A DNA stretch of 64,000 bases from Escherichia phage vB_EcoP_DE5. The DNA lies in sequence record MW741821.1. The stretch is one strand, 5' to 3'. Shown here one piece after another: positions 16,341 through 18,450 of the stretch (positions are counted from its first letter, which is position 1; every line of letters starts with the position of its first letter). Under the pieces are notes generated by a model. That model did not search any database. It saw nothing but the letters and a program-made list of their open reading frames with translations, and had not been told where the DNA came from. The position numbers were made by a program, and so were the translations under genes.

Positions 16341-18371
16341 TTAACCTCTATTCAATGAACATTTAGGAGAATTACAATAAACTTGATTCATAGAACCAAG
16401 CGTACAACTTTCAGCATCGCGCCACGGAATCTGCTTAAAACACTCTGAGCAGTAGCCGAGGGTTGACCACATGGCTTTGGTGAAGTCAGTGCTTCTGTTT
16501 CCGTCGAAGCTGACGACAGTTTTGCGGAGAGTTGTTCGTGATTCAGGAAACACACCTGCTTTCTCAGCAGGTTCCTCCTTTTTTGGCTTAGTTGAGATTG
16601 CAAAAATACTGTTGCCACGTTTCTCAACATAAGCATCAACAACATCTTCCAGAGTGATACCTGTCTGTTTCGCTGAGGAAGGTAATACAGTCATACGACC
16701 AATCATATCCTCAGTTACACGTACAGCAATTTCAGGACGACGGGTATTTGTTGTATCTGTTGCTTTAATCCAGACATAACCATCTTTGATCGTAGCATTA
16801 GACACTTTCTTCTTTACATCTACAGCGCAGACTTTACAGATATCTTCACCACGAAGACGGCTGAGTTCCTCATCGAACTCATTCTCTGTTTTAACTTCAC
16901 CGCAGATTTCACAAACACCAATAGGAGTTTCCTCCTCTTCTTCATCTTTAGGTTTAGTCAAACCTTCCAGACATTCAGGGTGCCAGTAGCACTGATATGC
17001 GAAGACTGCTTTAGGTGCATCCTTCCAATCAATGTGTTTGTCACAACCACCGCAATCACCATGAGAGTGTGCTTCCCAGAATTTACGAGTGATAGTAACG
17101 CCATTCTTATTGACGAAACTATCATTCATGTCAAAAGGGATATCATCATCGAAGTCAGCAGTAGTAGACTCAGGCTCCTTTTTCTCCAGAGATGGGTCAA
17201 CAAAACGACCTGCTGTGATCACTAAACGAACCATAGCATTAACTTCGGAGATACAGGATACTGTCCCACGGTAAACGATCTTAGGGTCTTTCAGTGCGTC
17301 CTGATAAGCCTTAATGTCTACGTTATGAACATCACCTTCGATGTACTCTTGAGACTTCTCATCGTAGATATAACCAATCATCTTACCACGAGAAGGAACA
17401 GCACCAGCAGTTGCATAAGGAACGAACTCATGCGGAGTGATTTCAACAGTCATATCACGACGGATATCAATATTTCGATCGCTTGCGATTTTGTTTTGAC
17501 TTACCACTGCGTTTCTTCGACGAACGTCTGCCGCTGTCACACCCGGCTTCGTGTCGTAAGGATTGCTTGTACTGCTTTTTGAGGAACTTTGATAGTTGCT
17601 TTGGCTGTAATTGTTCGAGTAGTAATTGCCCCAACGATTGACTACCGTAAAAACCGGAAGCTCGTGGGCGACCTCTTCAACCAGTGTCATGCTGTTATTA
17701 GACATGTCAAAGATATACTCTGTACCAACTTTACATTCAAAATGCTCATCAATACGGTTCTTGTGAGACTTCGAACGCTTCAGAATCCACATCAGCATAT
17801 CTTCTTCAGAAGCACCAAACCAATCTCTGTTACAACGTGCGAGATGGAAAGGACGCTCTTCGTTACGAATGATATGAAGGCGGTTATCAGAAGCATCATG
17901 CCAGATTAATGTGAAAGCACCATCCAGCTTTTGAATAGTCTCTGCTGCACCAATAGTGTTAATAGAGTGGCAGATGTTCTCACTGTCTACCTCGAAGTTT
18001 TTGCTGTCAGGTAACAGATCTTGGTCCATCAAGGTTCCGTTATGAACCAGAGTGATGTTACCATGTTGGAAAGGATGGGCGTTCTTGGCGTTAACTGCAC
18101 CTTTCGTTGCATGACGACTGTGACCAACAATCCATGAAGGTGCTACAGTGTAAGCTGTTTCACCAGTGGTGTGCTTCTTGTACTCATCTTGTAGGATGAA
18201 TGCGAAAGAAGGAAGAGCTTCTTTATAAGTGAAGACTTCCTTGGTGCTTTTACGCTGACCAAAGATACCGGAGGAATGTTGTCCTCGGAATACTCCAGCG
18301 TAAAAGAGTTGGTTGAATACGTCTAAATCAGTGCTTGACAGATTACCGCCAGCTAATACGATGCCACAAAT
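16341..18371 (-). CDS. class-II (Ntn) glutamine amidotransferase with Cys-rich C-terminal region; apparent non-canonical ATT start
   Basis: Frame is open upstream of track start to TAG at 18375-18377; hand translation gives I-CGIVLAGG...HSRHATKGAVNAKNAHPFQHGNITLVHNGTL (GAT-II signatures); no in-frame ATG/GTG/TTG before the nucleophile Cys; AGGTGG SD 8 nt upstream of ATT. Confidence 0.65.
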   Translation of the reverse strand: MCGIVLAGGNLSSTDLDVFNQLFYAGVFRGQHSSGIFGQRKSTKEVFTYKEALPSFAFILQDEYKKHTTGETAYTVAPSWIVGHSRHATKGAVNAKNAHPFQHGNITLVHNGTLMDQDLLPDSKNFEVDSENICHSINTIGAAETIQKLDGAFTLIWHDASDNRLHIIRNEERPFHLARCNRDWFGASEEDMLMWILKRSKSHKNRIDEHFECKVGTEYIFDMSNNSMTLVEEVAHELPVFTVVNRWGNYYSNNYSQSNYQSSSKSSTSNPYDTKPGVTAADVRRRNAVVSQNKIASDRNIDIRRDMTVEITPHEFVPYATAGAVPSRGKMIGYIYDEKSQEYIEGDVHNVDIKAYQDALKDPKIVYRGTVSCISEVNAMVRLVITAGRFVDPSLEKKEPESTTADFDDDIPFDMNDSFVNKNGVTITRKFWEAHSHGDCGGCDKHIDWKDAPKAVFAYQCYWHPECLEGLTKPKDEEEEETPIGVCEICGEVKTENEFDEELSRLRGEDICKVCAVDVKKKVSNATIKDGYVWIKATDTTNTRRPEIAVRVTEDMIGRMTVLPSSAKQTGITLEDVVDAYVEKRGNSIFAISTKPKKEEPAEKAGVFPESRTTLRKTVVSFDGNRSTDFTKAMWSTLGYCSECFKQIPWRDAESCTLGSMNQVYCNSPKCSLNRG

Positions 18372-18450
18372 TTTCTAATCCACCTGAAGGGTAAACCCTT
18401 TCATCTAATTAACCTTTAAATTGTGCCCCTTTATCAGAGGCACCCATTGA

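Follow-up and report, generated by a model that had tools for sequence, protein, structure and literature searches.

The amidotransferase gene and its start site

The stretch analysed here, 64,000 nt of Escherichia phage vB_EcoP_DE5 (MW741821.1; the whole of it is called the window), comes from a phiEco32-like coliphage (Kuravirus, Gordonclarkvirinae). The region we investigated matches Bas91 and SU10 at 99% identity and phiEco32 at about 98%, and it contains, on the minus strand, a gene for a class-II glutamine amidotransferase of the N-terminal nucleophile (Ntn) type in which an ATT codon directly precedes the catalytic Cys. Two relatives recur in the comparisons: the Aeromonas phage BUCT695 (Grimontviridae), whose protein is about 50% identical, and L117, a phage-like scaffold of 624 nt from a bacterial assembly, with 60% protein identity. 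The gene and the features around its start are the following.

16341 to 18371, minus strand: amidotransferase gene, a class-II (Ntn) glutamine amidotransferase of 676 codons including the ATT start; orthologue of phiEco32 phi32_83
18366 to 18368, minus strand: catalytic TGT, the N-terminal Cys (Cys1 after Met removal), which opens a CGIV motif as in GlmS and PurF
18369 to 18371, minus strand: ATT (AUU), the inferred initiation codon, invariant in the phiEco32-like phages, Suseptimavirus, Nieuwekanaalvirus, BUCT695 and L117; other relatives have ATG there
18372 to 18379, minus strand: A-rich spacer ATTAGAAA with the in-frame TAG (18377-18375), at which the upstream frame ends, 3 nt short of the AUU
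18380 to 18385, minus strand: Shine-Dalgarno (SD) sequence AGGTGG, 8 nt before the ATT; AGGCGG in BUCT695 and GGAGAGGA in L117
18030 to 18032, minus strand: TTG, the first canonical in-frame start, at residue 113, with a product of 563 aa in the list of open reading frames (ORFs); rejected as the start

Read on the minus strand, the junction is ATG(18404-02) AAA GGG TTT ACC CTT CAG GTG GAT TAG(18377-75) AAA ATT(18371-69) TGT(18368-66) GGC ATC GTA TTA GCT GGC GGT, which translates as MKGFTLQVD* K I CGIVLAGG. The in-frame TAG is separated from the Cys codon by AAA and ATT alone, and none of ATG, GTG or TTG occurs there. Two codons farther upstream, ATG at 18404 and GTG at 18383, share the frame of the amidotransferase, and the ATG opens a 9-codon mini-ORF that is ended by the TAG. 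A sequence-only reading of this DNA had described a frame open from the TAG into an intact class-II N-terminus, with no canonical in-frame start before the Cys, an ATT directly in front of it and AGGTGG 8 nt upstream; the sequence of the minus strand (ATT at 18371-69, AGGTGG at 18385-80) and the motif alignment bear this out. It had also held that a start at TTG 18032 would delete the catalytic domain, and this codon does fall inside the GATase_6 match (residues 75-175), so that the domain would be split in two. The mini-ORF had escaped its notice. The gene has no usable canonical in-frame start, an AUU at the functional N-terminus, an SD at working spacing and a conserved arrangement, and its start is of an established type, the AUU start of genes such as infC and pcnB. 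An out-of-frame canonical UUG overlaps the AUU (A-UUG-U) and opens an 8-codon ORF, LWHRISWR* (window 18343-18369, minus strand); the same overlap is present in other ATT lineages, and the UUG is a possible decoy for initiating ribosomes.

Class-II amidotransferases employ the alpha-amino group and the thiol of Cys1. Because this chemistry needs Cys1, the start must be the codon immediately preceding the TGT. The protein consists of an N-terminal glutamine amidotransferase (GATase) domain, a low-complexity linker and a Cys-rich C-terminal region. The Cys-Gly-Ile/Leu-Val/Phe that characterizes the extreme N-terminus of class-II enzymes is present in the predicted protein as CGIV directly after the start codon; all four residues (C1, G2, I3 and V4) are invariant in our alignment A1, and C1 and G2 are invariant in alignment A2. 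Also invariant in A1 are R28, G29, H83, R85, A87, T88, G90, N96-F100 (NAHPF), H109, N110, G111, D128, S129 and E130, which align with HTRWATHG, NAHP, VHNG and ETDTE of GlmS and make up the class-II glutaminase core. Pfam matches are to GATase_6, GATase_7 and GATase_4, the GATase_6 match being above the cut-off (E = 1e-14). The family profile matches PurF, GlmS and AsnB over the HxRxATxG, NAHP and HNG core, and hhalign against the GlmS glutaminase domain returned a probability of 92.8% (residues 81-193 on 69-197), with a GlmS sequence that agrees with the 1xff segment in the profile-search output. A phmmer search of PDB with the single amidotransferase sequence found no match, although the family profile did match, and a single-sequence AlphaFold2 model, with a mean predicted local distance difference test score of 34, was unusable for assessing the four-layer alpha-beta-beta-alpha Ntn fold. 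With GlmS, PurF and AsnB the phage protein shares the N-terminal CGIV, HxRxATxG, NAHP, HNG and D(S/T)E motifs; it differs from them in its Cys-rich C-terminal half, in which Pfam recognizes no known synthase domain, and in the location of its gene in an early-gene cluster of amidoligase, COOH-NH2 ligase and ATP-grasp genes of the phiEco32 type.

Conservation of the ATT and translation of the N-terminal domain

An 81-nt segment spanning the junction is found in 98 phage records, in 67 of them at 99% identity or more, and the ATT-TGT junction is also present in IMG/VR contigs and in six metagenome contigs. The occurrence of an identical junction in 98 records and in metagenomes excludes a sequencing error as well as chance. 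For codons 1-112, the comparison among Kuravirus, Nieuwekanaalvirus (KBNP1711) and Suseptimavirus (ECBP2, SU7) gave ratios of non-synonymous to synonymous substitution rates (dN/dS) of 0.05-0.11, with dS saturated. This reveals that the N-terminal stretch is translated and under strong purifying selection at the protein level. The sequence-only reading had proposed an alignment of homologues to see whether they start with Met-Cys, and in homologues from phages of Proteus, Salmonella, Cronobacter and Vibrio the very same place is taken by ATG-TGT.

These observations bear on the alternative that translation begins downstream, at the TTG at 18032 or at another codon, with the N-terminal GATase domain an untranslated relic, or that the ATT stems from a sequencing error or from inactivation by mutation. 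Downstream starts were chosen by gene callers and by several depositors: the records of ECBP2 (L005) and SU7 (L006) start the amidotransferase at an ATG at codon 10, that of KBNP1711 (L004) at a GTG at about codon 44, and that of BUCT695 (L007) at a downstream ATG. As a consequence, the catalytic Cys is missing from the shortened coding sequences (CDSs) in several GenBank and RefSeq records. In addition, the proteomic analysis of SU10, which detected the amidotransferase by nine peptides, lists it at 63.8 kDa (PMC4281155). However, 63.8 kDa is exactly the mass of the TTG-start model, the full-length protein being 76.1 kDa, which indicates that the spectra were searched with the shortened model and are uninformative on residues 1-112; no peptide-level data were found in the supplements of the SU10 paper. 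The chosen start codons differ from record to record, the catalytic motifs are invariant, and neither the low dN/dS with saturated dS over codons 1-112 nor the identity of the ATT in 98 independent records and in metagenomes is compatible with a relic or an error. The truncated-protein and sequencing-error explanations are effectively refuted, and we assign them next to no probability.

Several annotators had already arrived at the ATT. The phiEco32 gene phi32_83 (EU330206, published in 2008; PMC4281155), SU10_085 and Bas91_0078 are each annotated as a 2031-nt CDS starting from ATT. The 128 CDSs of phiEco32 start with ATG (112), GTG (13), TTG (2) and, in the single case of phi32_83, ATT, so the annotators chose it deliberately. 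For the amidotransferase gene itself, the ATT start is part of the public annotation and no discovery of ours.

A different explanation retains the N-terminal domain but places the start at the ATG at 18404: the UAG would be read through, and a 12-residue propeptide would be removed autocatalytically, as in Bacillus subtilis PurF. This ATG is in frame, and propeptides occur in some class-II amidotransferases. However, UAG readthrough is very low in E. coli without a suppressor, and L117, which has no ATG, places a double stop (TAG TAA) ahead of the ATT, which rules out readthrough from upstream. Furthermore, the peptide encoded by the mini-ORF lacks conservation, L117 reading this stretch in another register, and no in-frame upstream start exists in 17 of the 20 lineages that have AUU or AUC (together AUH) before the Cys. 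We consider this pathway barely conceivable. Initiation at the AUU is the sole reading that gives a functional Ntn amidotransferase, and the comparison of sequences strongly favours it. The sequence-only reading had called it the most economical one, a view supported by the dN/dS values, the conservation of the leader described below, the homologues with ATG-TGT, the recurrence of AUU and AUC in the family and the double stop of L117.

The leader and the proposed mode of initiation

The sequence upstream of the start contains three overlapping features.

18369 to 18423, minus strand: ultra-conserved 55-nt leader block (TTTAAAGGTTAATTAG + mini-ORF + ATT), from the alignment of genera
18387 to 18400, minus strand: AAGGG-TTTA-CCCTT, a hairpin or palindrome that adjoins the SD on its 5' side; unique in the window
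18375 to 18404, minus strand: in-frame 9-codon mini-ORF MKGFTLQVD*, left over from, or replacing, the 3' end of an XRE-type helix-turn-helix (HTH) gene that lay upstream

Across Kuravirus, Nieuwekanaalvirus and Suseptimavirus (four genus-level sequences of Gordonclarkvirinae), 52 of the 55 leader positions are invariant (about 95%), compared to about 60% in the flanking CDS. When BUCT695 is added, 47 of 55 are still invariant versus about 30% in the flanks, and the metagenome copies are invariant as well. The core of BUCT695 differs at two sites, one in the hairpin loop (UUUA to UUAA) and one at an SD position that already mismatches the anti-SD (AGGUGG to AGGCGG). Both substitutions are non-synonymous in the mini-ORF (F to L and V to A), so it is the RNA or the DNA that is constrained and not the peptide. 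In L117 the leader is GGAAAGGGAUUUAUCCCUUGGAGAGGAUUAGUAA-AUU-UGC; its hairpin gains a symmetric A/T pair (AAGGGA-TTTA-TCCCTT), the SD, UAG and AUU are retained, and the second stop, UAA, directly precedes the AUU. The spacer core GGATTAG[A/T]AAATTTG is common to the window, BUCT695, L117 and the distant L172. The folding z-score of the leader is about 0, and the small hairpin is the only element common to the folds of the three variants, with the ribosome-binding site open. An Rfam search over 18200-18600 (E up to 10) returned sub-threshold noise alone (TLS-PK6 at 16.7 bits, astro_FSE at 14.2 bits), and searches for further leader variants with IMG/VR patterns and one metagenome scan returned only identical leaders and chance matches (L017, L101, L103 and others). 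Two other candidate elements were discarded: an SD-sequestering hairpin, GGUUUACC/GGUGGAUU, present in one minimum-free-energy fold, is disrupted by each of the two BUCT695 substitutions and does not appear when the three variants are folded, and a -1 frameshift on AAAATTTG would, by inspection of the sequence, not enter the amidotransferase frame.

The origin of the mini-ORF is indicated by the two relatives. L117 is without the mini-ORF ATG, and a 73-codon XRE-type HTH gene (Pfam HTH_3) continues in the same frame through the hairpin and the SD to the UAG. A homologous, unannotated HTH gene separates amidoligase from amidotransferase in BUCT695 (L007 2374-2505; its counterpart in L117 is 1-219); there it ends 45 nt upstream, and the 9-codon ORF comes next. 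The phiEco32-like phages do not have the HTH gene and have kept its last 55 nt as the leader. A tblastn search with the HTH protein matched BUCT695 only. Judging from these sequences, the mini-ORF is a relic, or a functional replacement, of the 3' end of the upstream HTH gene.

We propose that the 30S subunit is placed by AGGUGG, 8 nt upstream, on an open A-rich stretch that the small 5' hairpin would keep single-stranded, and that initiator formylmethionyl-tRNA (fMet-tRNA) decodes the AUU. Deformylase and methionine aminopeptidase would then strip the fMet, Cys being a permitted second residue, and expose the Cys1 nucleophile; the mature N-terminal peptide would begin with Cys: CGIVLAGGNLSSTDLDVFNQLFYAGVFR. 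The weak AUU, against which initiation factor 3 (IF3) discriminates, would result in a low output that depends on the state of the host. Ribosomes that terminate on the UAG of the mini-ORF, just 3 nt from the AUU, may supply part of the initiation in the manner of thrS-infC, and the in-frame stop would block an N-terminally extended, inactive protein. A glutamine-hydrolysing enzyme of the early cluster may thereby be kept scarce and tied to the host state, and the sequence-only reading's remark that AUU starts are usually regulatory may apply to the amidotransferase gene in this sense.

It is very probable that the gene is translated in this manner from the AUU at 18371-18369, with SD-directed initiation by fMet-tRNA, removal of Met to expose Cys1 and a low, IF3-sensitive output. 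Several points weigh against it. We found no published experiments on initiation of the amidotransferase (N-terminal proteomics, toeprint or ribosome profiling) in the searchable literature; the SU10 proteomics, searched with the 63.8 kDa model, is silent on residues 1-112; the out-of-frame UUG in A-UUG-U could take some of the ribosomes; and the hairpin half-sites are conserved in sequence, beyond pairing, which fits recognition by a protein equally well as an RNA structure.

The expected behaviour of such a start follows known AUU genes. Both infC and pcnB start at AUU (PMC3592434; for pcnB also 10.1101/063800). Expression from AUU has been placed 6-8-fold below that from AUG (PMC3592434) or at about 1-2% of it (10.1101/063800). 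Messages that start with AUU are poor competitors and respond to IF3, guanosine tetraphosphate (ppGpp) and nutrient limitation (PMC5499595), and the output of the phage start should be hypersensitive to these factors and to temperature (PMC5499595; PMC2268962). With E. coli thrS-infC the phage site shares the AUU start, the stop of an upstream ORF 3 nt before it (UAG-AAA-AUU here) and an SD inside the upstream ORF; by analogy, IF3-sensitive output and a mixture of reinitiation and de novo initiation might be expected, as passages of PMC3592434 that cite Butler 1986 and Sacerdot 1996 describe for infC. The phage site differs in the absence of autoregulatory logic, as its product is an amidotransferase and not IF3, in an upstream ORF that is a 9-codon relic and not a real gene, and in the hairpin that adjoins the SD. 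The AUU of E. coli pcnB limits an enzyme needed in small amounts (Binns and Masters 2002, as cited in PMC3592434 and 10.1101/063800) and, as in the phages, alternates with canonical start codons among relatives; however, pcnB is a cellular gene, its start is not marked by an Ntn constraint, and no conserved leader module has been described for it. In Enterococcus faecalis ebpA an ATT start, predicted in silico where a downstream ATG had been annotated, attenuates expression (PMC4447247), but this is a Gram-positive pilus gene, unrelated in protein and leader.

The geometry shared with thrS-infC raises the question of whether the AUU is served mainly or only by reinitiation after the UAG of the mini-ORF (ancestrally of the HTH gene), with negligible de novo initiation. 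All three leader variants retain an in-frame ORF whose end is 0-3 nt from the AUU: it is the 73-aa HTH gene in L117, and the ATG of the 9-codon ORF in BUCT695 and the phiEco32-like phages arises exactly where the HTH frame was closed or deleted. The spacing of 3 nt between stop and AUU persists in BUCT695 and L117 and equals that of thrS-infC (PMC3592434), translation of the mini-ORF itself being putative, and upstream genes end 1-4 nt before the AUH codon in L070, L085, L145, L168, L173, L181 and L202. However, the mini-ORF ATG of BUCT695 is without a visible SD, whereas the AUU's own strong, well-spaced SD is conserved, and no ORF ends nearby in L038, L039, L050, L055, L119, L172 and L185. 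Even at the infC junction (UAA-GGU-AUU) reporters attribute just about half of the initiation to reinitiation, the other half being de novo (PMC3592434). Close abutment to the upstream gene is the norm in the family and is not enriched with AUH starts (8 of 20 AUH versus 68 of 105 ATG lineages), by which coupling as a general explanation for AUH starts is rejected statistically. For the gene in the window, obligatory coupling appears unlikely.

A further possibility is that the palindrome, AAGGGTT/AACCCTT, is a DNA operator through which a dimeric HTH protein, in origin the product of the neighbouring XRE-type gene, would control transcription into the amidotransferase gene, the AUU being a separate matter. 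The palindrome is perfect over 14 nt in BUCT695; its half-sites AAGGG...CCCTT are conserved, and do not covary freely, in three lineages whose proteins are 50-60% identical; BUCT695 and L117 have an HTH_3 gene directly in front of it; and Grimontviridae relatives carry a promoter-like TTTAAATGTAA motif ahead of it. Nevertheless, the phiEco32-like phages keep the palindrome invariant though they have no HTH gene, and no gp36-type promoter (TAATGTATA, up to 1 mismatch) is present at the site in the window. The palindrome has no second copy in the window, where a near-match at 27849-27862 is part of a coding region and no better than chance would give; a consensus scan of the minus strand at the leader found no sigma-70 promoter. 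In addition, unrelated hairpins occupy the same SD-adjoining position in many other lineages with AUU or AUC (next section), which argues for a structural role. We regard the operator as a doubtful alternative to translation from an AUU assisted by the hairpin.

AUU and AUC starts in the amidotransferase family

The codon before Cys1 was recorded in viral contigs (retrieved with query A1 and with query A2) and in bacterial and archaeal assemblies. After removal of redundancy, the 132 lineages comprised 105 with ATG, 17 with ATT, 3 with ATC, 5 with TTG, 2 with GTG and none with ATA. The rate was reproduced in the second sample, drawn after the pattern had first been seen, which contains 7 ATT and 3 ATC lineages among 61. 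Outside the group of the window, AUU or AUC recurs in about 18 lineages. The AUH state needs at least 18 changes on a rough neighbour-joining tree, and the nearest neighbour of nearly every AUH lineage is an ATG lineage; the proteins of L070 (ATT) and L066 (ATG) differ by 3%. All 20 AUH lineages have an SD 7-9 nt upstream, and the 17 mentioned above have no canonical in-frame start between the upstream stop and the Cys. Compared to a generous non-canonical background of 0.5%, 20 of 132 corresponds to P of about 1e-23, though detectability may inflate this enrichment, as annotation would not reveal an AUU start in other protein families. The ratio of ATT:ATC:ATA of 17:3:0, although G-to-A is a transition, suggests that AUU is specifically favoured. 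The three ATC codons stand directly before the Cys in viral contigs L136, L165 and L202, each with an SD. The use of AUU or AUC in about 15% of phage Ntn amidotransferase lineages appears to be unreported in the searchable literature, as do three further points: how extremely the leader is conserved, its derivation from an upstream HTH gene in an infC-like arrangement, and the tendency of such starts to have an SD-adjoining stem-loop.

Hairpins of at least 5 bp that end 9-22 nt before the start, a criterion left unchanged for the replication sample, accompany the AUH starts. In the first sample they were present in 8 of 10 ATT versus 7 of 56 ATG lineages, a post hoc comparison in which three leaders are homologous; with the homologous leaders collapsed the proportion is 6 of 8 (p = 5e-4). 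In the replication, 5 of 10 AUH versus 5 of 49 ATG lineages had such a hairpin (p = 0.008; for ATT alone 3 of 7, p = 0.05), and combined the numbers are 13 of 20 versus 12 of 105. The sequences of the hairpins are unrelated between lineages, which makes a structural role plausible. Osterman et al. found that hairpins flanking the initiation region raise expression (PMC3592434). The A content of the spacer was elevated in the AUU lineages of the first sample (0.61 versus 0.42, p = 2e-4) but did not replicate in the second (0.50 versus 0.40, p = 0.11), and a stronger SD in ATT lineages is unsupported (-7.8 versus -7.15 kcal/mol, p = 0.24).

Three leader cores of about 18-25 nt, each including SD, spacer and start, are shared by lineages whose proteins are more than 45% divergent: GGATTAGAAAATTTGTGG in phiEco32, BUCT695 and L172, with a variant in L117; GGAGATGAGAAAAT[T/C]TGTGG in L038, L055 and L136; and AAAGGTAGGAACCYAAAATTTGTGG in L070 and L183. 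These cores represent either old, strongly constrained leaders or an exchange of leader modules. One could assume that AUU or AUC is a selected control device, repeatedly evolved or long retained, typically in the form of a module that combines an SD-adjoining stem-loop, a strong SD, an A-rich spacer and the AUU, with cores such as GGATTAGAAAATTTGTGG better conserved than the proteins behind them, and that it ties a glutamine-consuming enzyme to the IF3 and ppGpp status of the host. We offer this interpretation tentatively, and judge it somewhat more likely to be wrong than right. If it were correct, non-canonical initiation in phages would be far commoner than annotation suggests.

Many records of phiEco32-like phages, Suseptimavirus, Nieuwekanaalvirus and Aeromonas phages, and at least one proteomics database, carry a truncated protein without the Cys, which could be misread as inactive. 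Experimentally established bacterial AUU starts are a handful (infC, pcnB and ebpA), and in the amidotransferases the requirement for Cys1 provides a built-in marker of the true start. The family offers natural, phylogenetically replicated AUU initiation regions for testing what makes a weak start codon usable, and it hints that phages tune a glutamine-hydrolysing amidotransferase to the physiological state of the host.

One further feature lies beyond the leader.

18423 to 18443, minus strand: terminator-like stem-loop GTGCCTC-TGATAAA-GGGGCAC, just past the amidoligase stop, without a U-tract

Its stem changes are compensatory between genera (GTGCC/GGCAC versus GCGC/GCGC), and its loop is variable (TGATAAA, TGACAAA, TGGTAAA, GAAA, TTATACA). 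It is labelled 'terminator' in the WFI101126 record; without a U-tract it is no canonical intrinsic terminator, and it may be a processing or stability element. In Grimontviridae-type relatives (L023-L028, L007-L010) the motif TTTAAATGTAA(A/T) is found 20-35 nt upstream of the amidotransferase start and resembles the phiEco32 gp36 promoter element tAATGTAtA. A degenerate form of it, TTTAAAGGTTAAT, occupies the corresponding site of the phiEco32-like leader (window 18405-18420).

The C-terminal approximately 350 residues of the amidotransferase (window 16341-17300, minus strand) are without a Pfam match. Three Cys-rich motifs of the CxxC...CxxC or CxxxxC type are found in the C-terminal half (CGGCDKH...CYWHPEC, CEICGEV...CKVCA and CSECFKQ...CNSPKC), a pattern that suggests zinc ribbons and not a known synthase domain. 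L113 and L120 (Peptococcaceae metagenome-assembled genome) and L114-L117 (Herbiconiux daphne assembly) are phiEco32-like or related phage fragments in bacterial assemblies. The single Actinobacterial assembly of Herbiconiux daphne contains four different amidotransferase variants on tiny scaffolds, and the phage fragments in these assemblies almost certainly represent contamination or mis-binning.

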